Counted from the first letter of the stretch, positions 26,950 to 61,991 are shown. The stretch: 64,000 bases of DNA from an uncultured Gammaproteobacteria bacterium (GCA_965230935.1 OZ246400.1:566359-630358); one strand, 5' to 3'. Numbers and translations: made by a program. Notes: a model not told the origin generated them from the letters alone.

Positions 26950-27005
26950 CACCGCCGGGACGTTCCCTGGCGGTGTGTGGTTGTATGATGAGTTGTGGGC
27001 GTTGA
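26950..27005 (-). repeat. Island B 3' module: CA-rich tract plus bulged hairpin, sense on the minus strand
   Basis: Sense strand reads TGAtcaacgcccACAACtcatcatACAACCACACAccgccAgggaacgtcccggcggtg. Confidence 0.6.
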
Positions 27006-27539
27006 TCAGTCCGCCGCGAGCGCCGTGGTGCAGTAGTAGTAGCTGCGGTTCGGATCGCCAGCGCCGCCGAAGATGCCCCAGCCACACCGTGGCTTGCTCG
27101 GGGTGCAGCCCTCCTCGACACCATCGTTGTTGGTGTCCTTCTGGATGCACTCCTGGCAGAACCCGTGATCGAGACCACTGTTCTGTGCAGTCTTGCAGAA
27201 GTGGCCCCAGACCGAGGAGAAGCAGTCCTTGTGCATCGTGCACAGATTCCCGTGGCCGATCATCTCCGACGTATCGGGATGCACGCACACGGCCGGCCTG
27301 TCGCCCTCGGTGTTGGTGTGGCACACCAGCCAACCGGGGCGGCAGTCCTCGTTGTACTGGCACGGATCCCCGACCCCGACGAGCGGATCCGTGATGATCA
27401 TCGGATCCGCCTGCATGGTCACGAGGTTACGCTCGGGCTCCACCACTTTCGGGGCGTCCTTCTTGCACCCCGAGGAGATGGTGAGGAAAAACAGCGGCAA
27501 GAGCGCCGCGGCCAACGCAATACGCGTACAGTTGATCAT
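27006..27539 (-). CDS. Cys-rich secreted lipoprotein in GC-anomalous island B
   Basis: Signal peptide with lipobox LTISSGC and at least 14 Cys. TTGACA-N17-TAGGGT promoter plus AAGGAGGG RBS upstream. About 60% GC. Confidence 0.5.
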   Translation of the reverse strand: MINCTRIALAAALLPLFFLTISSGCKKDAPKVVEPERNLVTMQADPMIITDPLVGVGDPCQYNEDCRPGWLVCHTNTEGDRPAVCVHPDTSEMIGHGNLCTMHKDCFSSVWGHFCKTAQNSGLDHGFCQECIQKDTNNDGVEEGCTPSKPRCGWGIFGGAGDPNRSYYYCTTALAAD

Positions 27540-27742
27540 GGCGTCCCTCCTTCGTTTTTGCGAGGCACCGTGCCAAGCAAGGAAGCCAAACTACACCCTA
27601 CCACTATCAACAATGGTTGTCAAGTGTAATATACTTAAAATTAGCTAAATTAAAGAAAAATATAACAATTCTAATGAAACACCTCCTTCTATTGCCAAAA
27701 TAGGCTATATCCGCTATAGTAAGGCACGTAAAACTAAAAACT

Positions 27743-34276: not shown

Positions 34277-34333
34277 AAGCGACCGGATGTTCCTGGTCGC
34301 TTCTGCGTTGTGTTAGTTGTGTGCATGCCGGCC
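34277..34333 (-). repeat. Island C 3' module: CA-rich tract plus A-bulged hairpin, sense on the minus strand
   Basis: Sense strand reads TAGggccggcatgCACACAACtaACACAACgcagAAGCGACCaGGAacaTCCGGTCGCTTttgaaatttt. Confidence 0.6.
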
Positions 34334-35332
34334 CTACGCCGCGATCGACCTCTGGAGCCGACGGTGCATCTGCGTAGCCGGCGGCAACAGCGGATCCACG
34401 GTCACCTGCTTGAGGTCGGGCTCCTGTGGCACGTAGATAAGCCGCTGTCGCACGTTGACCATCTGATTGTGGACTCGGAGTTTTTCGGTGCTCTCTCCGT
34501 AACTCTGAACTCCACCGGAGGTGGCCATGTCCCTGGCGAAGAGCCCGATCACGGTGTGCATGACCACATACTTGACCTGCGGGTAGCCGTTGGCCTCGCG
34601 CAGCGTCTCCGTTAGTGGATGCTCGGCAAACGCGGTGATCCCGTAGCGCTCGAGAACCCCGGCCATCAGACCGTACTCGATGCACCACCCGATGGGCAGC
34701 GGCATGTTGGCGATGTCACCCAGACGAATCCCCTGCTGTCCGCACAACGGCCAGGTGACTTGTGCCAACTGACAGTACGGCTCGGGCAGGAAGTTGAGCC
34801 CGGCTGAGAACCCGGAGTTCTCTGGCCAACCCAACTTGACCAGCCGCGCTTTTGGGGCACCTTCCCACGCCAACAACAGCTTGCCGATCGGATCGGCGCT
34901 CTGCAGATGGGTGAGGTCGGTATCCAAGAAGAAGATTCGCGTGTCGAAGTCGACTCCACGCTGCACCAGATCAAGCACCGCCGCGTACATAGCAGCGCCC
35001 TTGCCGACGCAGAACTCGTTCTTCGGAAGGCCAAACTGCTCACGCAGCACGTTCAGCACTGTGGAACCGCGCCCCAGCATGTCACGCTGCGACACCACTC
35101 GCATGGCGTTGCGCGTTCCGGTCAAGGAGTGAACCACCTCGCGCGCCACGCGCACGGTCGGGTCGTCCTTGTCGGTCATGTTGCTCTCCACGAGCACGAT
35201 CTGACTGGGCTCGACGCCCCGAGAGATCACGTACTCGAGTGTCTGACCAATGTTGCCTTCCTCGAAGAGGGCCGGCAACACCACCACGTCTTCCGGGCGT
35301 AGCTCTTTCCACGCCTTCTCCCACTTGCTCAT
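34334..35332 (-). CDS. GT81-family glycosyltransferase, glucosyl-3-phosphoglycerate synthase-like, in GC-anomalous island C
   Basis: VVVLPALFEEGNIG, GKGAAMYAA, FLDTDL, WPLCGQQ and IGWCIEYGL parallel the mycobacterial GpgS motifs. aggagg RBS before MSKWEK. About 60% GC. Confidence 0.55.
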   Translation of the reverse strand: MSKWEKAWKELRPEDVVVLPALFEEGNIGQTLEYVISRGVEPSQIVLVESNMTDKDDPTVRVAREVVHSLTGTRNAMRVVSQRDMLGRGSTVLNVLREQFGLPKNEFCVGKGAAMYAAVLDLVQRGVDFDTRIFFLDTDLTHLQSADPIGKLLLAWEGAPKARLVKLGWPENSGFSAGLNFLPEPYCQLAQVTWPLCGQQGIRLGDIANMPLPIGWCIEYGLMAGVLERYGITAFAEHPLTETLREANGYPQVKYVVMHTVIGLFARDMATSGGVQSYGESTEKLRVHNQMVNVRQRLIYVPQEPDLKQVTVDPLLPPATQMHRRLQRSIAA

Positions 35333-35539
35333 GTTGCCCCTCCTTCGGTTCAACCCAATGCACGATGATCGTTACCTTGACAATTGCACATTATCGTGCT
35401 ATTGTCTTGGCGGAACTGATGACTCCCCAGTTATCGTTCTAGAAACTCCGCTTTGCGGAGTTTCTTCTTTCCGCCATTTTTCAATCTATGGTAATAAGAT
35501 GATTCCTACTGTATCGTAATTACTTTGGTAAAGCAAGAA

Positions 35540-36714: not shown

Positions 36715-37623
36715 TTAGTATTCTTTAAGCCACCGTGCCGGCGGAAGCAGCGCTTCCACGAAATGCGTACGTTGCCCCCCATCAAAATAAATCTGACGGG
36801 AACGATCGTGCGCATTCCACTCCTGTATTTGCTGTGGGCTTAATGTGTTAAGTCCTCCGAATCGGAGGATCTGCTGCATCAGGAGAAAAATCCGAGTGTA
36901 CATCATCACTACGTACTCGTCCACCGGATGAGCGGCGTGTTCACGAAGCGCACTCGAAAGATAGGATTGAGAAAACCCCTCAACTCCGTATTGCTCTACG
37001 ATGAAGGAGAGTAACCCCAGCTCCACGCCATACCCGCAGGGGATCGGCGCGCGACACAGATCACCAAAGTAAAACGCCTGTTGTCCGGAAAGCGGCCAGG
37101 TAAACCACGCGATTTCGCGATACGGTTCTGGAAGCGCATTTAAGTACGCCACCACCTGTTGATTATCCCGATCATAAGACGCCAACTTGGCCACCCGAGC
37201 ATTTGGACGCAACTTCCATGACTGGAGTAGCGTCTCGAGCAGCTGGATTTGCGCTGCGTTGGTGATGTCAGCATCCAAGAATACCACTCTCGCGTCATCA
37301 GGCGTTTTGTGGCACATCAGATGCACAATACCAGCGTACATCGCCGCACCCTTCCCTCCTGGGAGGGAACCAAACCCATAGGTACGACGCATGATGGATG
37401 CGTACCGTGCCAGTGTGTGCTCTTGGGATATAACATGGTGTGCCGACCCATTAAGCGCACGACGTGCGTGTGCACCGGTTTCATCAGTGCTGTGACTGTC
37501 GACAACCACGATTTGCTCTGAGCGCACACCACAGGCATGCAAATAGGCAATCATGTCGCCAATGGTCGCTTCCTCGTTGTGAGCAGGCAGCACCACTCGA
37601 TCCTGGTCTCGTAGCAGGGGCAT
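36715..37623 (-). CDS. GT81-family glycosyltransferase, glucosyl-3-phosphoglycerate synthase-like (low-GC resident paralog)
   Basis: VVLPAHNEEATIG, PGGKGAAMYAG, FLDADI, WPLSGQQAFYFGDL, CGYGVELGLL. Confidence 0.6.
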   Translation of the reverse strand: MPLLRDQDRVVLPAHNEEATIGDMIAYLHACGVRSEQIVVVDSHSTDETGAHARRALNGSAHHVISQEHTLARYASIMRRTYGFGSLPGGKGAAMYAGIVHLMCHKTPDDARVVFLDADITNAAQIQLLETLLQSWKLRPNARVAKLASYDRDNQQVVAYLNALPEPYREIAWFTWPLSGQQAFYFGDLCRAPIPCGYGVELGLLSFIVEQYGVEGFSQSYLSSALREHAAHPVDEYVVMMYTRIFLLMQQILRFGGLNTLSPQQIQEWNAHDRSRQIYFDGGQRTHFVEALLPPARWLKEY

Positions 37624-40993: not shown

Positions 40994-41066
40994 AAAACGG
41001 GGTCTCGGATGGTTGACATCGTTGAGTTTCCCCGTGTTTCTGTTGTGTGTTGTTTGTGTGCTGTGA
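40994..41066 (-). repeat. Island D 3' module: CA-rich tract plus long bulged hairpin, sense on the minus strand
   Basis: Sense strand reads TGAtcacagCACACAAACAACACACAACAGaaacacGGGGaaactcaacgatgtcaaccatccgagaCCCCgttttctaa. Confidence 0.6.
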
Positions 41067-42482
41067 TCAGCCCGCCAAGCGGTGGATGACGCGATCCAGA
41101 CGATCCTGGAACACGAAATTCTGCTCGTGGAGCATCTGCACCGACGGGATGATGCGATCGGTCAGACCGCTATCCCGGATCACCGGACCGGGGAGCTTGC
41201 CGTGCCCCCGCTCGTCGTCCGACCTGCTGGGAATGCGCGCAGCGTGCTCGAGTTGCACCAACCCCGCGTTGAACCGCTGGTAGTCCGCCATGGTCCAATC
41301 GGTGATCGGCTTGCCGAACCACACGTAGTAGCGCATGAACCGCCCGATACCGTCCTGCATGAGGAACTCTTTGGTATCGTCGTTGCACGCATCCACGCGC
41401 GGGGAATGCGTCTCGACCTGAGCGATGGCCTCCGGATGACCGTTCTTGCGGTATTCGATGCAGGACTCGACCCAGATGGACATCAGGGTCTCCTCCCAGT
41501 ACCGAGTCGCAAACGGCCGGTTGAAGGCAATGCGTCCCAGCATCCCGAACTCGCCGGTCAGCATCCACTTGTGCTCGGTCAGAACCATCCACAAGTGGTG
41601 TGCCACCCGACGCACGTTCGCCGGAGTCGCCGGATGCGTCGCGATGTCGCCCAGCAGGTTGCGGAACGACATGCACGTCTCGTTCCCCCGCCCACCGCGG
41701 GTGATCTTGACGTAGCGATACCGCAGGTCGCGATGATCGCCACACGCCGCACGATCAGCCAGTGGGAACGCCAGATGCCCCAGCGCGTGGTAGCAGGGCA
41801 TCATGTCGTAGCGCACGTCGGCGTCGTGCTGGATCACGGACTCCTTGGCCGCTTCCGGGTGCAACGCACGCATGGCCAGCATGCCGGCCAGCATGGTCAA
41901 CCCTTTGCCACCACTCGGACGCTCGTCCAGGCCCAGCACCGGCAGCAGCCGCTGCCAGTCCAGGCAGTCGAGCATCTCGTCCATGTTGACCAACCGCACA
42001 CCACGACCGAAGAACTCCGAAACCGCTGTGGTCGCCGCGTCACCGGACTTGCAGTTGGCCACGATGATCCGATCACCAGGCACGTACTGCGTCGCGTAGT
42101 CCAGGACGTGGCCCACGACGTCGGTGTCCTCCTTCATGGGGATGATCACGTACGCGTGCTTCTCCAGACGATGGGCGATCTGATCCGCACGTGCGCGCAT
42201 CTGCTCGGCACTCGGGTAGAAGAAGTGCTCCAGCGCCGGACGCTTGTCCGGATCCATGGACGTACGACCCTTCACCGACGCGTACGAACGCACCAGATCC
42301 GGACCGCCACCGACGGCGACCTTGATCTGTTCATCCGTGCCTCCTTTTGGGAACAGCGTGCCAGCAACGTCCGCACCGTTACCGCCGTCTTCACGCGCAC
42401 CGACCGGTGCGCCTTGAGTGGTTGTTTGGGTTTGATCCCTCATTTTCTGGTGTATCTCCTCTGATACGTGCGCAGGCGTCAT
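41067..42482 (-). CDS. Large (471-aa) GT81-like glycosyltransferase paralog in GC-anomalous island D
   Basis: VIIPMKEDTDVVGHV, SGGKGLTMLAGMLA and VIQHDADV echo the GT81 motifs. About 64% GC. Confidence 0.45.
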   Translation of the reverse strand: MTPAHVSEEIHQKMRDQTQTTTQGAPVGAREDGGNGADVAGTLFPKGGTDEQIKVAVGGGPDLVRSYASVKGRTSMDPDKRPALEHFFYPSAEQMRARADQIAHRLEKHAYVIIPMKEDTDVVGHVLDYATQYVPGDRIIVANCKSGDAATTAVSEFFGRGVRLVNMDEMLDCLDWQRLLPVLGLDERPSGGKGLTMLAGMLAMRALHPEAAKESVIQHDADVRYDMMPCYHALGHLAFPLADRAACGDHRDLRYRYVKITRGGRGNETCMSFRNLLGDIATHPATPANVRRVAHHLWMVLTEHKWMLTGEFGMLGRIAFNRPFATRYWEETLMSIWVESCIEYRKNGHPEAIAQVETHSPRVDACNDDTKEFLMQDGIGRFMRYYVWFGKPITDWTMADYQRFNAGLVQLEHAARIPSRSDDERGHGKLPGPVIRDSGLTDRIIPSVQMLHEQNFVFQDRLDRVIHRLAG

Positions 42483-42639
42483 GCACTGCGTTTTTTGGAA
42501 AAGAACGGTGTGCAGCTTCGTGCTAACACAGGTTTTACAGCTACAGCTCGGAAATGACTCGACGATGGATTCTCCTCAGTCCCATGTCTTCACCACTTCA
42601 CTCATCAACGGATGATCTCCGCTCATGAGTGCAGTTGTG

Positions 42640-44740: not shown

Positions 44741-44852
<112 letters not shown>

Positions 44853-44925
44853 ATAGCTGCTTTCGCGCTATTGCTATTTGATTGTTTTGAAAATGAAGAC
44901 GCACACATACCGCAAGTATAAAACA

Positions 44926-47985
<3,060 letters not shown>

Positions 47986-48369: not shown

Positions 48370-48475
48370 GGATTGATGTGGATGAGTTGTGTATGATTGA
48401 CGTTTCCTCTAAATCATGCGACGCTATGGCTATGCGTCGATCCTGACGCACAAAACCATCAGACGAGGAGGGCTG

Positions 48476-49039
48476 ATGATCGAGTTGCTCACGACAATGG
48501 CGTTCGTAGCGCCTGACGACAGACCAGAAATGAATCCGGAGCCTCCTGAACAGGAGACGCACGGGTTCAATGTCCCGTTGTGGGCCGGCTGGATGCTGAT
48601 GTGTCTGGCCCTGGGTGCGGCGTTCGCTTTGCTGATCTCACCACTCAGCGCTGCCTGGTGGGTGCACCTGATCAACGGTGCGGTTGCCATGGCGATCATC
48701 TTCCTACTGAGTGTGCTGATCGCCAGGATGAACAACCCGGAGCTCCTCACCAAGATCAAGCAGATGCTGTTGATCAGCTTCATGGCAGGAACGTTCTGCT
48801 ACCTCGGCTTTGCGCTGGCGAGCTGGGAGCTGATGGTCGAGGATGGGCAGTACTACGCCAAGGAGCTCTCCTTCATCAACTTGCGGCACATGTTCACCGG
48901 CCAGATCGTGACCTTCATCGGAATCACGTTCTGGTGGCGAACCGCTAATGGTGACTGGGCGACGCCAACGCGAAAAGATGGAACCCCACCATCACCGGAT
49001 TCGAGCCGACCAACGCAACGACCAGGACGATTCCTGTAG
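48476..49039 (+). CDS. Membrane protein (4-5 TM) in GC-anomalous island E
   Basis: gaggaggg RBS before MIELLTTMAFV. About 60% GC. Confidence 0.4.
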   Translation: MIELLTTMAFVAPDDRPEMNPEPPEQETHGFNVPLWAGWMLMCLALGAAFALLISPLSAAWWVHLINGAVAMAIIFLLSVLIARMNNPELLTKIKQMLLISFMAGTFCYLGFALASWELMVEDGQYYAKELSFINLRHMFTGQIVTFIGITFWWRTANGDWATPTRKDGTPPSPDSSRPTQRPGRFL

Positions 49040-49104
49040 CGCGTGGGCCGGCACACAAACAACTCACACAACGAAACCGCCTGGACAACTTGTTCGGGCG
49101 GTTT
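49040..49104 (+). repeat. Island E 3' module for the plus-strand gene
   Basis: TAGcgcgtgggccggCACACAAACAACtCACACAACGAAACCGCCtggacaacttgttcGGGCGGTTT. Confidence 0.6.
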
Positions 49105-55100: not shown

Positions 55101-56180
55101 CTACTCCACTGCAACAAACTTACCCAAGAACTCATGAATCTGCGCCATCTCAGTGATATTCGCTTCTTCAGTATATTCATGCGCGTTGTAATATCCTGAT
55201 CCAAGCGGCACACACATGATTCCTTTACTATTAAAGATATTTGCATCTGTTCCGCCAAAGGTTTCAAAATAGTTTGGTGTGAGATTCATCTGAGTAAATG
55301 TTTTCTCAAGCCGATCAAACAACGGATGATTTTTTTCCAAGTGATACCCACCAAACTCCAATTTCCAATCCATCTCTAACGTTCCACCCCATTTTTGCGC
55401 AACTCCATCAAAAACCTCGGTGATACGTTTTGCCTCAGCCACTACCAAATCAGTATCAAAACTGCGCATCTCGGCTTTAAGTTTTGCGGTCCCCGGAACA
55501 CTATTGCGTGCAGTTCCTGATTCAAACATACCAATATTCCAAGTAACACCCTCAGTGCTATACCCACACGGCACTGCCATCATAGCTTCTGCTGCCATCT
55601 GCAAGGCATTAATTCCTTTTTCCGGCTCTCGTGGGTGCACAATCTTCCCAACAAAGGTTGCATCCATTTGCACAAATCCAGGCGCGCGCGTCACCACCTG
55701 TGTCACGGGCCCATCTTCATCTAATACCACACCGATCTTGGCACTTAACTTATCGTAATCTGCATTGATCGCCCCGTGCAAACCAGTTTCTTCTCCACGA
55801 GTAAGTAATACTTCGATTGGCGCATGCGTATTTGAATCTGCTTTTTGGATATCAATTAAAAATTCGATCAACACCGCCAACCCGGTCTTTGGGTCTGCTC
55901 CTAAAATCCCCGTTCCATTCGAACGAATCACATCACCATCAATAGTATAATCAGGTTTTGGAAGCGGTTCCGGAATGTCTAAATGAGTGGAGAGTAAAAT
56001 CGCATCACCAACACCAGGAACTTTGGCAATAATGTTTCGAAACGAATCCAACTCATGAGCAACTCCGGCCTCATCCAGTCGTTTTTGCGTATACGCAATC
56101 ACCTCTTTTTCATTGGGATAGATTTCATCAATATGAATAAGGTCAATAAAAGTCTGTTGAATTCGCTCGTTAAGTGTCAT
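55101..56180 (-). CDS. M20-family metallopeptidase
   Basis: STHLDIPEP and GGTDANIF motifs. Start trimmed to MTLNERIQQ; the upstream track residues run into the GC island, read on the antisense strand. Confidence 0.45.
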   Translation of the reverse strand: MTLNERIQQTFIDLIHIDEIYPNEKEVIAYTQKRLDEAGVAHELDSFRNIIAKVPGVGDAILLSTHLDIPEPLPKPDYTIDGDVIRSNGTGILGADPKTGLAVLIEFLIDIQKADSNTHAPIEVLLTRGEETGLHGAINADYDKLSAKIGVVLDEDGPVTQVVTRAPGFVQMDATFVGKIVHPREPEKGINALQMAAEAMMAVPCGYSTEGVTWNIGMFESGTARNSVPGTAKLKAEMRSFDTDLVVAEAKRITEVFDGVAQKWGGTLEMDWKLEFGGYHLEKNHPLFDRLEKTFTQMNLTPNYFETFGGTDANIFNSKGIMCVPLGSGYYNAHEYTEEANITEMAQIHEFLGKFVAVE

Positions 56181-56255
56181 AGAAAATAAAAAAGTAATAT
56201 TCAGATGTCTGCACCTATGCAGGCGTCTACATACTACCATGAAATACGTTGGTGC

Positions 56256-56341
56256 GCCCGGAAGGAGTGATTCCCTCCGGGCACTTGCTTGGCACGCGTT
56301 CGCGCGCAAAACCCACGTGTTGTGTTGTTGAGTGTAGTGCG
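56256..56341 (-). repeat. Island F 3' module, sense on the minus strand
   Basis: Sense strand reads TGAcgcactacactcAACAACACAACACGtggg...GCCCGGAgGGAatcacTCCtTCCGGGC. Confidence 0.6.
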
Positions 56342-57235
56342 TCAGGCCACGACGCCTTTGGCCCCGTAGAACCAGGTGCTGCGCTGCAGCATACCCATAT
56401 CCGCTCTGCACGAACCGTAGTGGTCGTGCAGGAGGTTTGCGGCGGTGCCCATCGGGGAGACGAACACGCCGGTTGCCGCGAAATGGGCACTGATCTGCGC
56501 GTGATCCATCACTCGCTTCTGGTACGTTCCGGTCCACAGCACGCGCTTGTGCCGCTTCCCGATCGCCACCACGAAGATGGTCATGATGCCGGTCTCGGGG
56601 TCGTACACCGGATGGCGCACATCCCAGACCGGCTCGCCGTCGAGGATCGCATCCCAGGTGAAGTAGCGCCGCTTCTCACAGCACTCCAGATATCCGGTAG
56701 CGATGAAGTCCATGACGAACTGACCACCCTGCTTGAGCGGCGCGACCATGCCGGTCGTGACCTGCTCGAGCAGCGCGAGATCCGTGATATCAGCGAACGA
56801 ATTGCCGAGCAACACCGCAGCGTCGCACGACACGTCCGTTCGCCATTCACACAGATCACCCACGTGCAGCTCGACCCGCGAATCGCCCCCGAAGAGACGA
56901 CGAGCTTTTGCCACACAGGCGTCTGAGAGATCCACACCGATGATGTGCTCGACTCCTGCATCCAAAAACGCCGGGATGTGTCGACCCGTGCCGAAACACG
57001 GGAGGAACAGCACCTGCGGAACCGGACGCAAGAGTTGAAGAGTACACGCGACCTCCGCCCTGGAGAGGGCATCGTCCTCGTGTACGCCTTCGTCGAGCTG
57101 GACCATGATGTCGTAGTGCCGTGCGATGTCGAACTGCTCCAGCGCCCGAGGACGCCTGAGGAATTGTTCGATCTGCGCCGCGGCAACACCAATGGCCCAT
57201 TCACCATCACGCTTCTCTTGCGCTGTCGCACTCAT
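56342..57235 (-). CDS. Class I SAM-dependent methyltransferase (small-molecule/protein type, not DNA MTase) in GC-anomalous island F
   Basis: LFLPCFGTGRHIPAFLDAGVEHIIGVDLS (motif I) and acidic motif II. No DPPY/NPPY motif. Overlaps the upstream gene by 29 nt. Confidence 0.55.
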   Translation of the reverse strand: MSATAQEKRDGEWAIGVAAAQIEQFLRRPRALEQFDIARHYDIMVQLDEGVHEDDALSRAEVACTLQLLRPVPQVLFLPCFGTGRHIPAFLDAGVEHIIGVDLSDACVAKARRLFGGDSRVELHVGDLCEWRTDVSCDAAVLLGNSFADITDLALLEQVTTGMVAPLKQGGQFVMDFIATGYLECCEKRRYFTWDAILDGEPVWDVRHPVYDPETGIMTIFVVAIGKRHKRVLWTGTYQKRVMDHAQISAHFAATGVFVSPMGTAANLLHDHYGSCRADMGMLQRSTWFYGAKGVVA

Positions 57236-59525
57236 GCGGCGGCCGCCCCCGCGTGACGTCGGACGAAACGGCCGTAGCCGAGTCGGCCTTGAGCTGCTCC
57301 TTGACGACGATCACCTCGACAGCGTCAGACGCGCCGTGGACCTTGAGCCCACGACGAAGGGTCATCATGCTGCCAACCGTCTTGACCACCCCCGGCGCCG
57401 TGCGCAGAAGGTACAGAGTCAGACGCGTGCGCGCATCGCGGATGACATCGACGTTGCCGTCCTCGTCCGCGTACGCACAAGTGACTCGGGCCGACTTGAT
57501 GAAGCGCTGCCCGATCATCGGGAAGGTGGTAGCCACCGCCTTGGAGACCTCGGCGAGCCAGTCCGTCAGACTGTGTTTTTCACCAGCCTCGAACAGACGC
57601 GCACCCCAACAGCCGTTGTCACCGTCGTACCCACCGCCCTTGATCACCATGTCCCCACGGTGATTCTTGTCGCTTCCCGGTCGCTTCCCGCGAACCTGGT
57701 CCATGGAGAACGCATTGTTCACCGTGGCCAGCTCGAACGCGTCGGTCAGCAAACCGGTGGTCGCCAGATGGGCCTGAAGTGTGTCCACGACCGGCTGGCC
57801 GTAGTGCTCCACGATCCACTTGCACACGCTCGGCAACCAGGCGGCCATGAGCATCACCTTGGACTCCGCGTAGAAGCACACCGGGTTCAGGAAGACGACG
57901 TCGTCCTTCTCCCACTCCAGCATGCGCCGGAGCAGCTCGTTGGCGAAGTTGTCGTGGTACCCGAACCGGAAGACGACCGAGCCGTGCGGCGGCGCCGGAA
58001 TCTTGTCGGACTCGTAGCCGAAGACGAACTCGTCGAACTCGGCGGACGCCAGGCGCCCCATGAAGTCCGTGTTCCAGTTGGCCTGGAAGGCCTTGGACGC
58101 GGCGGACGGCGGGTTCCACTCGAACGGTGTACCACTGCCCGGCTGGATCTGGTCGTGGATGGCCTGGAGCGGCTTGTCGAAGATGATCTGAGCATCGATG
58201 CCGCGGCGCCGAAGCTCCGCGCAGAACACCGCCTGGTCCCAGGTGTACTCCGACCACTCGTTGGTAGCGATGATGCGAAACGGTCGATCACCGATGAAGC
58301 CGGCGTAGGCATCGACCATCTCGGTATCTACCTCGTACCCCAACTCCATAGCGTGGACCATCCCCTGACCCGCACCGGCGGACTCGGCCTCCGTGGTAAC
58401 CGGAGCGAGTTTGTCGCCCCGCCGGATGACCGAGATGTCCGGACGCGTCAGGAGCATCGGCTGATCGCTCACCAGCGGCTCGATCCGATCGGGCAGCTTG
58501 AAGGTGAGCAGCTGATGCAGTGCCTCGTCCCCGGCCTTCCACTTCGCCTGAACGGCATCGCAGAGGATGAACAGGGACAACGCGAACATATCCAACTGCT
58601 GCCAGAAGACCGCTGGAAGCTCCATGGTGCGCAGCGCCACCAACCACGTCGGGCCTTCACCGCCCTTGTAGCCGATGCTGGTCTGCCGCATGCGCTCCTT
58701 GACCCGCACCCCCTCGGTAGCCGAGGTACCCATGCGTTCCGTGTCCGTGTCCTCGAGCATGACCACCCGGTCTCCCGAGTTGAGCTCGTCGAAGCACGAC
58801 GGATCCTGCATGAGCATGTCGAGCATGGTCACCCCGGTACCGCCGATCGTGGGCTGGTTGAAGTAGCACACGGCGACCGAGTACAGCTTGAACAGCGCGA
58901 ACAGCGGCGTCGGCGCCGTGACCTCCTCACGCTCCCCCTCCGGCTTGGCACGCTGCGCGGCGCGAGCCGCTTCGTAGGCAGCCATGTGGCCCGGCCGGTA
59001 AAACGTGAGCTGACGCTCGTGGGAGTTGATCCCGTCGATGACCGCTTCCACCACGAACTCGTCGATCGCCTCGAGATCTTGTGCGTCGCTGACGGCCAGG
59101 CACTGGTTTCCCACACCCCGGTACGTCTCACTCGAGCGAATCTCGAAGCTGCCGTCCGGCCTGGCGACCAGACGCACGATGAGCTCGCCGTCCTGATTGT
59201 GTCCGAGGTGAACGACCCGACTCTTGCACTTGTCGAAGACGATCCGCACCCCCCAGTCGAACCCGGTGTAGGGCAACCGCTGCGCAGCCGCCTGCATCCG
59301 GAGACGATTCTTGGGGAACGTGCCAAACGCCTGGGGCGGGATCTGCACGACAACACCGTCGTGGCAGTACTCCCCGCCAGCAGCGTGCGCATCGAGTATC
59401 TCCCGACTCCACTTGCCCGCCCCCTTCTTGTACGGGGACGGCTCCTTCCAGCCGTGCCTGCGACGATCCGCATGGAGGCGCAGAATCGCCTCACGCGCTG
59501 TCGCGTCCTGTGATTTTTGACTCAT
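57207..59525 (-). CDS. Hypothetical 772-aa protein (no confident domain) in GC-anomalous island F
   Basis: agaggag RBS 8 nt before ATGAGTCAAAAA. About 62% GC. Co-oriented and overlapping with the methyltransferase gene. Confidence 0.45.
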   Translation of the reverse strand: MSQKSQDATAREAILRLHADRRRHGWKEPSPYKKGAGKWSREILDAHAAGGEYCHDGVVVQIPPQAFGTFPKNRLRMQAAAQRLPYTGFDWGVRIVFDKCKSRVVHLGHNQDGELIVRLVARPDGSFEIRSSETYRGVGNQCLAVSDAQDLEAIDEFVVEAVIDGINSHERQLTFYRPGHMAAYEAARAAQRAKPEGEREEVTAPTPLFALFKLYSVAVCYFNQPTIGGTGVTMLDMLMQDPSCFDELNSGDRVVMLEDTDTERMGTSATEGVRVKERMRQTSIGYKGGEGPTWLVALRTMELPAVFWQQLDMFALSLFILCDAVQAKWKAGDEALHQLLTFKLPDRIEPLVSDQPMLLTRPDISVIRRGDKLAPVTTEAESAGAGQGMVHAMELGYEVDTEMVDAYAGFIGDRPFRIIATNEWSEYTWDQAVFCAELRRRGIDAQIIFDKPLQAIHDQIQPGSGTPFEWNPPSAASKAFQANWNTDFMGRLASAEFDEFVFGYESDKIPAPPHGSVVFRFGYHDNFANELLRRMLEWEKDDVVFLNPVCFYAESKVMLMAAWLPSVCKWIVEHYGQPVVDTLQAHLATTGLLTDAFELATVNNAFSMDQVRGKRPGSDKNHRGDMVIKGGGYDGDNGCWGARLFEAGEKHSLTDWLAEVSKAVATTFPMIGQRFIKSARVTCAYADEDGNVDVIRDARTRLTLYLLRTAPGVVKTVGSMMTLRRGLKVHGASDAVEVIVVKEQLKADSATAVSSDVTRGRPPHECDSAREA

Positions 59526-59548
59526 CTCCTCATCTCCTCTCTAACATT

Positions 59549-59572
59549 GTCATGACTTCCTGTCGTGACAGG
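59549..59572 (-). promoter_or_regulatory. Paired palindromes (gtcatgac; cctgtcGTgacagg) between the putative promoter and RBS of the island F operon: candidate operator
   Basis: Perfect 8-bp palindrome and 6+6 palindrome immediately upstream of the RBS. Confidence 0.4.
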
Positions 59573-59903
59573 GTTGATTGATACACTCAATTGTCGATGA
59601 ACGTTACCCAACGCGATGCTGGGCCTCCCATCCGCATTCACCGACAATCGGCTTTTACGAAAGGGAGGGCAACACCTGTTAAACGAAAAATGCTGCAGTT
59701 TCCTGCAGCAATGGAGTCTTTATGGAGACAACGACTTATACAACATGCTGCAAGGAAGGCTTTGGCACAATAAAACGCACAATCAAAACCCAGAGAGTGC
59801 GATGCACCATCTTAGTCTTGTGGAGATATTGTGTCAAGCTCAATACTTGCATACAATGTGTTGTTCAAAACTTACTCTAATATGTGTGAGAAGGCTTGTC
59901 AAA

Positions 59904-61007
59904 TCATCTTGTGGATGACTGCGTCGCCCTTCGAATAAATTCGACATAAATATCATAAAAATCTTTTATGCTATCCATATGAACCCATTCATGATTACTA
60001 TGCATATCACCGGAAATCGGCCGGCTACACAACACCGGAACATCGTGGGATGCAAAATACCGTCCGTCATCTGCACCACAGCTTGCAATGAGTGTTGTTT
60101 CTTTATCTAAAATGTCTTTTACCACCTGTTTATACAATGCAATATATTGGTTGTCTGGAGCAGTGTAACTCGTTCGCCCCTCTTCAAGAATTTGGATCTG
60201 ACACCCTACAGCTGCCTGTTTAATTTGTTCGATAAACTCATAAGGATCATCATTTTCAGTTAATCGGACATCCAATACACATTCTGCACTTTCCGGAACT
60301 TGGTTAATACTTAATCCGCCAGAAATTTTGCTGACTGTGCAAGAACGTTCCCATCGCTCTGGTGTTTGTTCTTGTGGAAACAATTCGCGGATTCGCTCGT
60401 ATGCGCGCATTAACTTCAAAATTGCATTATCGCCCAACCACGGGCGCGAACCATGAGCTGATGCGCCATGTGCGTGAACACGGATGATCCATGATGCTTT
60501 ATTTTTGTGAATTAACGTCTCTGGATTATCACTTCCATCGGGACACAACACCACTTTGGCTCGGTATCCGATTTCTTCGGCAAGATACTTTGCCCCGTTA
60601 AACCCACCAATCTCTTCATCACACGTAAGCATCAATGCAATATTTGGACGCGTATTCCATGTGACGATCTCTTGCATTACGACCATCATCACGGCATCTT
60701 CAGCTTTCATATCACACACACCACGACCACGCATGATTGGTCCTTCGATTCGCGGTTCAAAATACTCATCTGGTGAACCTACTACATCCAAGTGTCCCAA
60801 CATGAGCACATCAGGAGTGAGCGTCTCTTGCGTACTAATGACTACTGAGTGCGAACCTTCGCTCTGATATTGACGAACGAATAAGTTGGGGACTGGTGCA
60901 AAAAAATCGAGCACATAATCAATTGCGCGGCGCTGTTCATCAAACCGATCCTCAGTGGTGCGCATGCGCACCAAGTCTTGGGTGATTTTAATAAGTTTTT
61001 CTTTCAT
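59904..61007 (-). CDS. M20-family peptidase (ArgE/DapE-like deacylase)
   Basis: MLGHLDVV and GRGVCDMKA motifs. Start at MKEKLIK (cat at 61005-61007). Confidence 0.6.
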   Translation of the reverse strand: MKEKLIKITQDLVRMRTTEDRFDEQRRAIDYVLDFFAPVPNLFVRQYQSEGSHSVVISTQETLTPDVLMLGHLDVVGSPDEYFEPRIEGPIMRGRGVCDMKAEDAVMMVVMQEIVTWNTRPNIALMLTCDEEIGGFNGAKYLAEEIGYRAKVVLCPDGSDNPETLIHKNKASWIIRVHAHGASAHGSRPWLGDNAILKLMRAYERIRELFPQEQTPERWERSCTVSKISGGLSINQVPESAECVLDVRLTENDDPYEFIEQIKQAAVGCQIQILEEGRTSYTAPDNQYIALYKQVVKDILDKETTLIASCGADDGRYFASHDVPVLCSRPISGDMHSNHEWVHMDSIKDFYDIYVEFIRRATQSSTR

Positions 61008-61039
61008 AGAAGTGTTTGCATTGTAGCGGAGAATGGAAA

Positions 61040-61264: not shown

Positions 61265-61894
61265 TCAGCTTCCACCCCTCTTCGCCATGAATGCGGCGCC
61301 ATGGCCAATGTGCGTGTTCACCGGCTTCCCCTCCTCACACAACGGACACTCGTTCGCTGGGTAGGTCGACATGTCGACGTTCACCAGTGTCACGAGATGC
61401 TCCACGCCGAGAACTCCAGGTGTCACTCCGCCACGATTGACCAAAGCAGCAACTCCCACCACGTTAGCACCAAGAGAGCGTGCCAGTTCGATTGCCTTCT
61501 TGGCCGAACCACCGGTGGTAAGGATGTCCTCGACCACCATCACACGCGTGCCCGAAAGCAGGTGCGGCTCGGTTTTCACCACGAAGCCATCCCCGTCCTT
61601 CTCTGCGATAAAAAAGGACACGGGCCTGGATGTAAGCATGGCGAGTTTGTCCGCTGTGACAATGCCTAGTGCGATAGCTCCTACGGCCGGCGCGACCACA
61701 GCATCAATGTCGGGGTCGACCTCGTGAGCCAAACGAGCCATCTCCTCGCAGAAAGAGGACACCTCAGCTGTATGAACGACCACGGCACGTTTGTTGATGT
61801 GGGCCGGACCATGGTAACCCGACGCGTACACGAAATGGTCGTTGTCAAGTACCGCCCCAAGAGCGGCCAATCTTGCCATGAAGTCCTGTTTCAT
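61265..61894 (-). CDS. Type I phosphoribosyltransferase, orotate-PRTase-like, in GC-anomalous island G
   Basis: VMVVEDILTTGGSAKKAIE PRPP-binding motif. aagggagag RBS before MKQDF. About 60% GC. Confidence 0.55.
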   Translation of the reverse strand: MKQDFMARLAALGAVLDNDHFVYASGYHGPAHINKRAVVVHTAEVSSFCEEMARLAHEVDPDIDAVVAPAVGAIALGIVTADKLAMLTSRPVSFFIAEKDGDGFVVKTEPHLLSGTRVMVVEDILTTGGSAKKAIELARSLGANVVGVAALVNRGGVTPGVLGVEHLVTLVNVDMSTYPANECPLCEEGKPVNTHIGHGAAFMAKRGGS

Positions 61895-61991
61895 CTCTCT
61901 CCCTTCGCACGAAATCGCTGTGACCAAAAAAACTTCACTTAGTGAAATATTAGAGAAAAAAGTGTTGATTGTCTAGAATAAAATTTTGATG

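Follow-up and report, generated by a model that had tools for sequence, protein, structure and literature searches.

A GC-rich gene pair conserved in Patescibacteria encodes a predicted ATP-grasp ligase and a predicted methyltransferase behind a putative leader-peptide attenuator

Introduction

Does a sharply bounded GC-rich segment with two genes, in a genome of much lower GC content, represent a recently acquired foreign island or a resident operon? We ask this question of positions 56250-59575 in a stretch of 64,000 nt labelled as an uncultured Gammaproteobacteria bacterium (GCA_965230935.1 OZ246400.1:566359-630358). We call the whole stretch the window, and all coordinates refer to it unless a different contig is named. 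An earlier note described the segment as a foreign operon of a 772-aa protein without recognisable motifs and a class I S-adenosylmethionine (SAM) methyltransferase, with palindromic operator sites that suggested control by a repressor, and proposed a tailoring, ligase-like or defense module. The genes of the window have their closest relatives in genome bins of Patescibacteria (the candidate phyla radiation, CPR), which account for much of bacterial diversity and in which most lineage-specific genes are unannotated.

The answer that we favour, as a probable though not a secure one, is that the segment is an operon of a ligase (the 772-aa protein) and a methyltransferase (297 aa), conserved in CPR and controlled by an attenuator, whose products would make a methylated amide or peptide conjugate. 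An unannotated family would in this way gain a fold and, with it, a reaction that can be tested, in which the ATP-dependent formation of an amide bond is coupled to methylation. The operon may also reveal ribosome-mediated attenuation in CPR, of which we know of no earlier description.

Results

A GC-rich segment with two overlapping genes

The segment spans 3,326 nt with 63.2% GC, against 46.3% in the remaining window, and in a 200-nt profile its edges are abrupt (near 56240 and 59600). Its two open reading frames (ORFs) are co-oriented and overlap by 29 nt, in agreement with the earlier note; these genes, the other elements of the operon and the neighbouring M20 peptidase genes are all on the minus strand (Table 1). 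High-GC DNA has long ORFs on both strands, and for that reason we examined codon-position composition. In the 772-aa frame, the GC content at the first, second and third codon positions (GC1, GC2 and GC3) is 0.64, 0.44 and 0.84, a pattern that repeats in every 60-codon block, including a lineage-specific insertion described below. The antisense ORF on the plus strand, with 795 aa, has the mirror image of these values (0.83, 0.45 and 0.64). The signature of the 772-aa frame is the normal one for a real gene in GC-rich DNA, and together with the homologues presented below it rules out an artefact of high GC content, which the earlier note had considered as a way in which it could be wrong.

Three separate metagenome assemblies from a single project contain contigs that match the window at 99.98-100% identity. 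Two of these contigs (16.2 kb and 9.0 kb) span the junction between the M20 gene and the GC-rich segment, so the junction is not an assembly chimera. Both junction-spanning contigs, which are independent assemblies of the same organism, stop inside the ligase gene (at window positions 57799 and 57948), which points to a failure of coverage or assembly within the GC-rich stretch.

Conservation of the locus in Patescibacteria

We collected related loci from the contigs of five methyltransferase homologues, and by scanning species-representative genomes and metagenomes with the ligase alignment. The result is 12 distinct loci (L006, L008, L011 and L014-L022; L005, L007 and L009/L010 duplicate three of them), and the metagenome scan contributes one further informative upstream region, L030. 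The order ligase, methyltransferase, PepT-like M20 metallopeptidase is found in the same orientation in 12/12 related loci, with M20 genes 56-69% identical to that of the window; the outer flanks differ. The earlier note had proposed looking at whether other genomes keep the gene pair together, and all 12 do. All or nearly all of the loci are from Patescibacteria, the named genomes being Candidatus Magasanikbacteria, Uhrbacteria, Woykebacteria, Jacksonbacteria, Kerfeldbacteria and "Patescibacteria group". Two loci, L015 (CAYNRK010000001.1) and L018 (CAYIQM010000073.1), come from bins labelled "uncultured Gammaproteobacteria"; they have the same collinear CPR-type locus, with M20 genes 60-69% identical to that of the window, and their labels are probably wrong. 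The pairwise identity matrices of the three proteins are correlated (Mantel r = 0.64-0.76, p <= 4e-4), and the sub-clades (L008, L021) and (L011, L015, L019) are common to all three, which argues for joint inheritance of the three genes.

A strong hairpin follows the methyltransferase gene in 11/11 other loci that were folded, in most of them with a T-rich tail, and the hairpin found there in the window likely marks the end of a bicistronic transcription unit. These hairpins bound the unit and place the M20 gene in another one, probably a separate transcription unit in the window as well. The layout that had been proposed for the segment, a large unannotated enzyme and a small-molecule-type class I SAM methyltransferase in one transcription unit, is thus the one we find.

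How much, then, is left of a recently acquired island that would serve as a tailoring or defense module under repressor control? The GC step from 46% to 63% is sharp, and the codon adaptation index (CAI) of the ligase gene is 0.51, about 10 standard deviations lower than that of 24 host genes (0.74 +/- 0.02, with GC3 between 0.30 and 0.44). The window ligase is also the most divergent member of its family, 33-37% identical to all others at a locus where the M20 neighbour is 68-69% identical to those of one clade; accelerated evolution or xenologous replacement in the window lineage is possible. Recent insertion is nevertheless largely refuted by the synteny, which comprises the same order and the same neighbour in loci from several candidate phyla, and it is at odds with the correlated distance matrices and with a GC3 excess that recurs in all loci. 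At the edges of the segment we find no direct or inverted repeats, integrase, tRNA or mobility genes. A scan of viral contigs has no relative, and no homologue appears outside CPR-type loci (nine genome matches, all with the same synteny). In support of a defense role there is a weak PADLOC match of the methyltransferase to mad2, which covers ~100 residues of the SAM domain (E = 7e-8) and is generic; no other MADS components are present, and the ligase has no match in PADLOC or PHROGs. The codon usage is strongly non-host, but a foreign origin by recent insertion is not supported.

The palindromes proposed as operators are where the earlier note placed them, GTCATGAC at 59549-59556 and CCTGTC-GT-GACAGG at 59559-59572, and a strong double GGAG does precede the ligase ATG. 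The background in the window is 0.39 perfect 8-bp palindromes and 0.31 inverted repeats of 6+6 per 100 nt, and 91 of 1278 intervals of 100 nt (7%) hold one palindrome of each kind. Similar palindromes are not seen upstream of the homologues. We rejected the palindromes as operators, since they occur at chance frequency and are not conserved. On all this evidence, a recent, repressor-controlled foreign island is very improbable, and we are fairly confident that the operon is a conserved CPR module. Next to the palindromes, a tandem duplication GAGGAGATG-AGGAGATG-A (59522-59541, minus strand) creates a 3-codon mini-ORF, MRR followed by a stop codon that overlaps the ligase ATG.

A predicted ATP-grasp fold for the 772-aa protein

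Searches with the 772-aa protein in Pfam, NCBIfam, PADLOC, PHROGs and (by phmmer) the PDB are all empty or at noise level, and profile-based searches of Pfam and the PDB with the family are also empty. The Walker A, HExxH and DPPY motifs are absent from this protein, as had been noticed before. A word-indexed search of 5.8 billion proteins returns nothing, neither by single sequence nor by a 47-sequence alignment, and an exact-sequence contig look-up has no record of the exact ligase sequence. An exhaustive phmmer search of 1.84 billion cluster representatives does identify 77 relatives, 40 of them at E <= 1e-30, with 30-40% identity over residues ~219-741. The family, which spans 77 clusters at 50% identity and has no Pfam model, is by these searches new at the sequence level. 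In a 23-sequence alignment, the core is strongly conserved, and a helix at the N-terminus (L..LR.KHGF) is conserved as well. The core covers approximately residues 270-741, and residues 1-270 are a family-specific N-terminal extension. The window ligase carries an insertion of ~120 aa (~95-215) that most aligned members do not have, and one member has a shorter insert.

Gene callers often choose the wrong strand in GC-rich segments, which makes this family easy to miss. They did so in several of the public contigs (L002 7328-8002, L007 2458-4449 and L011 3371-4984, equivalents of window 56249-56926 and of the ligase gene), so the family is under-represented or mis-translated in protein databases; this may explain the empty word-indexed protein search. 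The 471-aa and 339-aa proteins of other GC-rich islands in the window were tested as paralogues of the ligase and are not paralogous.

The AlphaFold model from the single sequence is unusable, with a predicted local distance difference test score (pLDDT) of 35. With the 23-sequence alignment, the AlphaFold 2 (AF2) model reaches a mean pLDDT of 78.6, and is above 90 over most of residues 270-740. When this model is compared to the PDB with Foldseek, the first 35 matches are all from one branch of ATP-grasp amide ligases (E from 2e-15 to 2e-5, with target template-modelling scores of ~0.5-0.6). The matches include human, yeast, plant and trypanosome glutathione or homoglutathione synthetases, nematode effectors that resemble glutathione synthetase (GS), Mfla_0391, E. 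coli YgiC, and a putative GshA. The folds that the earlier note had suggested looking for (ATP-grasp, GSP-synthetase, amidoligase) are thus the ones retrieved.

The conserved residues may point to the same class. (Residue numbers are those of the protein and are one higher than in the alignment and the model, which omit the initiator Met.) The 47-sequence alignment has four invariant columns, R361, D363, E379 and K556, and the columns conserved at 90% or more include E381, K629, Q673 and R701. The motifs appear in the order R-P-D-x15-E-x-E-S-x-P, S-K-x-L-M, K-x4-D-G-x-N and V-x-Q, and, judged by inspection, they are colinear with RLD-x12-ENNADTP, NKALL, KPIFSREGAN and VQQ of YgiC. They may be equivalent to E144, N146, K305 and K364 of human GS, residues reportedly described by Dinescu et al. 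2004.

Several results weigh against this assignment. No member of the 23-sequence alignment has a Pfam match at E <= 1, with GSH_synth_ATP, GSP_synth and CP_ATPgrasp among the models considered, the NCBIfam search and the PDB profile search do not link the ligase to any ATP-grasp family, and hhalign of the family profile against E. coli YgiC gives no signal. The second metal-site residue is Glu in the ligase and Asn in both GS and YgiC. The assignment comes from a predicted structure and from inspection of motifs. Taking both sides together, we consider it very likely that the model identifies a three-domain ATP-grasp fold of the GS/GspS type, a structural class to which YgiC and Cp1B also belong, and the probable chemistry is carboxylate-amine ligation via an acyl-phosphate. 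With ATP and Mg, the predicted ligase would activate a carboxylate of its substrate as an acyl-phosphate and then join it with an amine. The bond so made, an amide or (pseudo)peptide bond, would be located either on a small molecule or at the end of a peptide. Confidence in any specific substrate is low. In one clade only, a gene for an Asp/Glu racemase lies divergently just upstream of the leader and the ligase gene (L005/L019 5051-5839, L011 2156-3001), possibly a hint at a D-amino-acid substrate.

The sequence of the 297-aa protein identifies it as a class I SAM-dependent methyltransferase. It matches Pfam Methyltransf_25 with 33.6 bits (cut-off 27) and Methyltransf_11 with 22.2 bits (cut-off 21.2), and it has the segments LPCFGTGRH and IGVDLS on which the earlier note had based the same assignment. 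These results agree with a Rossmann-like SAM-binding domain that has the glycine-rich motif I and, where strand 2 ends, the acidic residue. Only 15 homologues are found, with 45-53% identity. Similarity to solved structures is limited to the SAM domain, the best being the sugar N-methyltransferase CalS10 (E = 3e-5). The methyltransferase would methylate the substrate or the product of the ligase.

A leader ORF, a terminator and a putative attenuator

Upstream of the ligase gene the window has a promoter-like sequence (P1), a short leader ORF and an intrinsic terminator, in this order (Table 1). A TTGACA-type promoter is at the equivalent place in most homologous loci, often with an ATG 9-12 nt past the -10 box, so that many of the leader ORFs look leaderless. 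The equivalent ORFs have 30-41 codons in 13/13 loci, with the stop codon 23-35 nt before the terminator stem. The terminator itself (manually curated for L006 and L021) is upstream of the ligase ATG in every locus, at a distance of 54-165 nt in 12 loci and of ~210 nt in L022. The second promoter-like sequence in the window, P2, has a -10 hexamer that overlaps an internal ATG of the leader ORF and has no counterpart in other loci; that it functions is doubtful. No Rfam riboswitch is found upstream of the ligase in the window or in 11 related loci.

For each locus, the 107 nt upstream of the terminator were tested for complementarity to its 5' arm, relative to 500 dinucleotide-preserving shuffles. 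In the window, region 2 can form a duplex with the 5' arm TGCTGCAG at -11.7 kcal/mol (p = 0.038). Over 13 loci the mean z is -1.8, with a Fisher-combined p = 3e-7, while a control, for which the terminators downstream of the methyltransferase genes of these loci were tested in the same way, has a mean z of +0.6 (p = 0.996). The 5' arms differ between lineages and the partner changes along with them: it is TTGCAGCA for TGCTGCAG in the window, GTCGGGGCG for CCCCGA in L017, and GAGGTTGTA for ATACAGCCTC in L021. In 11/13 loci, a distance of 6-26 nt separates the end of the segment that pairs best with the 5' arm from the leader stop codon that follows it. The leader RNA of the window (59868-59681) folds at -58.5 kcal/mol (z = -3.7 vs shuffles), and both the helix between regions 1 and 2 and the terminator are formed. 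Between the closely related loci L016 and L030, conservation is higher in the leader ORF and the terminator than in the flanks, and 4/6 changed codons are synonymous, a coding-like pattern. Compared to the proteins of these genomes, the leader peptides are enriched 4.7-fold in Trp, usually a single one, and 2.5-fold in Met.

We interpret this upstream architecture as a ribosome-mediated leader-peptide attenuator with the pairings 1:2, 2:3 and 3:4, a probable reading that we hold with reservations. The architecture has statistical support across the loci, and from it we infer the mechanism. Transcription would start ~350 nt upstream, and would cross the 38-codon leader ORF and then the intrinsic terminator. 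A ribosome that reaches the leader stop codon would cover region 2, and the terminator would form. A ribosome that stalls earlier would leave region 2 free to pair with the 5' arm, resulting in read-through into the ligase gene.

The reservations are the following. In L006 and L018 the best partner is far from the stop codon, and in L011 the duplex is only weak. None of the leader peptides has a run of one regulatory codon, and that of L020 has no Trp. The loci are not phylogenetically independent and represent about 9-10 lineages. Finally, the spacing between stop codon and terminator is also what one would expect of a small gene with a terminator of its own.

This last point leads to an alternative in which the small ORF or its RNA is an independent small gene (a small protein, a type I toxin-like peptide, or a small RNA), and the operon has a non-canonical promoter in the next 55-210 nt. 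A distance of 23-35 nt from stop to terminator is typical of any gene, and a short hydrophobic stretch together with a net positive charge is common among the peptides. A scan finds no sigma-70-like promoter between the palindromes and the upstream terminator, and no consensus promoter past the terminator in the window; promoters of CPR are poorly known, which makes a negative scan weak evidence. An independent small gene leaves out the complementarity between the 3' end of the ORF and the 5' arm, which is specific, positionally consistent, co-varying and absent from the control terminators, and we judge it rather unlikely.

A different alternative takes the small ORF for a precursor peptide. 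The ligase would modify a carboxylate of the peptide, the methyltransferase would methylate it and the M20 peptidase would trim it, and a leaky terminator would set the ratio of precursor to enzymes, as in many operons for ribosomally synthesised and post-translationally modified peptides (RiPPs). In favour of such a model, a translated-looking small ORF directly before the enzymes, and then a terminator, is present in 13/13 loci, the structural relatives YgiC and YjfC do ligate amines to peptides, and a peptidase is always adjacent. The peptides, however, share no common core, leader motif or C-terminal residue, their composition apart from the excess of Trp and Met is like that of translated random sequence, and the model does not require the antiterminator complementarity. 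We regard a precursor peptide as quite improbable, and retain attenuation as the preferred interpretation of the leader.

GC excess at third codon positions

Both the ligase and the methyltransferase genes are enriched in GC3 relative to the M20 gene in every related locus. For the ligase, the difference from the adjacent M20 gene is 0.14-0.47 in the window and in 12/12 related loci, as in 0.84 vs 0.39 for the window, 0.89 vs 0.44 for L006 and 0.53 vs 0.29 for L008. GC3 varies between lineages from 0.50 to 0.89, and GC1 is ~0.64 in all loci. The non-coding spacers are host-like or intermediate (0.37-0.56), so the excess is mainly in the two coding sequences. The two proteins are only 33-58% identical between lineages, which implies that synonymous sites are saturated and makes left-over donor composition an unsatisfying explanation. 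We are left with the puzzle of two genes whose GC3 exceeds that of the gene next to them by 14-47 percentage points in all these lineages, for which the simple notion of foreign DNA being ameliorated is inadequate. Selection on codon choice, a biased local process, and repeated replacement from a GC-rich pool are candidate causes. A literature search found nothing specific about GC-rich conserved genes in Patescibacteria, and another, on the sequencing project PRJEB17505, had no result.

Repeated replacement would account for the GC anomaly only: homologous recombination would bring in the pair from a GC-rich donor pool time and again, in place of vertical inheritance under a force that maintains GC3. 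The GC1 of 0.64 and a composition rich in Ala, Gly and Arg do resemble proteins of GC-rich genomes, and both the wide range of GC3 across lineages and the anomalous divergence of the window ligase would fit. The horizontal gene transfer detected in Patescibacteria is mostly among Patescibacteria themselves (PMC12455944). The pool has yet to show itself in the nine genome matches, all of them CPR-type loci with the same synteny, and against replacement of the pair stand the clades common to all three proteins and the host-like or intermediate composition of the spacers. We deem a donor pool unlikely, if worth keeping in view.

Two more speculative ideas, to which we jointly give little credence, start from the leader. 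In one, GC-ending codons that are rare in the host would be selected as a second regulatory layer beside the attenuator, to keep an operon induced by starvation or stress translatable when the common tRNAs are uncharged; the basis is the selective-charging idea reportedly due to Elf and Ehrenberg. In the other, the small ORF would provide what a GS-like ligase in CPR modifies, as part of a new class of ribosomal peptide modification. If true, either one would add a new principle, of regulation or of biosynthesis, in organisms whose biochemistry is almost uncharacterised.

The window has four more sharply bounded GC-rich segments with 58-64% GC (26950-27550, 34330-35355, 41000-42500 and 48450-49100). 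Their ORFs encode, in this order, 177 aa (minus strand), 339 aa (minus), 471 aa (minus) and 207 aa (plus), with GC3 of 0.75-0.86 and host-atypical codons like those of the operon. None of the four has a Pfam or PHROG match, the 471-aa one has none among PDB sequences either, and a pattern scan finds no attenuator-like elements upstream of these islands. L006 has three GC-rich orphan genes upstream of the ligase. Two genes in the window that are ordinary in other respects have an intermediate composition, a phosphoribosyltransferase (61265-61927, minus strand, GC3 0.65) and a 302-aa ORF (36715-37623, minus strand, GC3 0.56), so the GC heterogeneity of the genome is not strictly bimodal.

Neighbouring genes and other features of the window

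The best NCBIfam match of the M20 neighbour is TIGR01883 (PepT-like), with 229.9 bits, below the cut-off of 274. Judging from its conserved adjacency, the peptidase may supply or degrade a peptide partner. It is the adjacency that argues for a functional coupling to the operon, and the terminator between the two counts against it. Directly upstream of the operon (59904-61010, minus strand) is another gene of the M20 family, which is ArgE/DapE-like and shares only ~22% identity with the PepT-like gene. The operon is thus flanked by two M20 genes in this genome, and not so in the other loci.

Elsewhere in the window, a 23S rRNA gene (3013 nt, compared to a model of 2925 nt) and a 5S rRNA gene are located at 44743-47948 on the minus strand, and no 16S gene is found anywhere in the 64 kb. 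The rRNA arrangement is unlinked, and the 23S gene may carry an insertion. The window also encodes proteins with lamin-tail domains.

Table 1. Coordinates of the operon, its upstream region and the adjacent M20 gene in the window.
Feature	Position	Strand	Evidence
Promoter-like P1, TTGACA-17-TAGAGT, 21 nt before the leader start codon	59874..59902	-	promoter scan
Region 1 of the leader RNA, spanning the leader start codon	59846..59864	-	pairs with region 2 in the minimum-free-energy fold
Leader ORF, 38 codons and stop (MQVLSLTQYLHKTKMVHRTLWVLIVRFIVPKPSLQHVV)	59736..59852	-	
Promoter-like P2, TTGACA-17-TAAGAT, inside the leader ORF	59809..59837	-	promoter scan
Region 2 (CTTGCAGCATGTTGT), last codons of the leader ORF	59740..59754	-	putative antiterminator; either region 1 or the terminator 5' arm can be its partner
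Intrinsic terminator, TGCTGCAG-GAAA-CTGCAGCA then TTTTTCGTTT, 165 nt before the ligase ATG	59681..59710	-	
5' untranslated region with both palindromes and duplicated GGAG-ATG	59526..59680	-	
Predicted ligase gene, 772 aa	57207..59525	-	coding signature, homologues, alignment, AF2 model, Foldseek
Predicted class I SAM methyltransferase gene, 297 aa, overlapping the ligase gene by 29 nt	56342..57235	-	Pfam, homologues
GC-rich 13-bp hairpin, ~60 nt past the methyltransferase stop codon; T-run weak in this genome	56254..56284	-	
PepT-like M20 metallopeptidase gene, 359 aa, host-like composition	55101..56180	-	Pfam Peptidase_M20 and M20_dimer above cut-offs

Comparison with known systems

One close precedent is fungal. 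Cp1B is an ATP-grasp enzyme that condenses trans-epoxysuccinate with an amino acid in the biosynthesis of E-64; its amide formation is biochemically proven, and it was once a "hypothetical protein" (PMC12568646). Like the predicted CPR ligase, Cp1B and Cp2B (PDB 9CJN) are stand-alone, GS-like, three-domain ATP-grasps that were annotated as hypothetical and whose sequences show no detectable similarity to those of characterised ATP-grasps. Their identity with the CPR ligase is only 11%, and the CPR ligase has an extra N-terminal extension of ~270 aa. The gene contexts differ too: the Cp1B cluster has an Fe/2OG epoxidase and an ANL amide-bond synthetase, and the CPR operon has a SAM methyltransferase, with an M20 peptidase adjacent.

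Eukaryotic-type glutathione and homoglutathione synthetases (PDB 2HGS, 3KAL and 1M0W) are the top Foldseek matches, with E from 2e-15 to 1e-10 over nearly the whole GS chain, and the CPR ligase has their R-x-D...E-x-(N/E) and two lysines in the same order. It differs in that Pfam GSH_synth_ATP and GSH_synthase do not match it, that Glu replaces Asn at the second metal site, and that there is no gamma-glutamylcysteine ligase near the operon. The peptide-spermidine ligases YgiC and YjfC and the synthetase domains of GspS and TryS (PDB 7UKA, 2IO7 and 2VPM) are represented by the four short motifs colinear with YgiC. That YgiC and YjfC attach amines to peptides is stated in PMC12568646, which cites Pederick 2023. 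The CPR ligase, unlike them, has neither the amidase domain of GspS nor a YgiB/DUF1190 partner, has no hhalign link, and belongs to a family restricted to CPR.

Graspetide-type RiPP systems combine an MdnB/C-type ATP-grasp with a precursor that has a conserved core, and the peptides upstream of the CPR ligase have no such core. The defence systems in PADLOC differ from the operon in the way already described, with an unmatched ligase and a methyltransferase that matches mad2 in its SAM domain only. The leaders resemble the trpL, hisL and pheL attenuators in the succession of promoter, short ORF and intrinsic terminator, and in the two pairing choices of the 3' segment of the ORF. Unlike those attenuators, the CPR leaders are longer (30-41 codons) and have no tandem regulatory codons, and the genes that they would control are not a recognisable pathway of amino-acid biosynthesis. 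Taken together, these comparisons place the locus within a known enzyme class, to which it adds a new family and a new operon variant.

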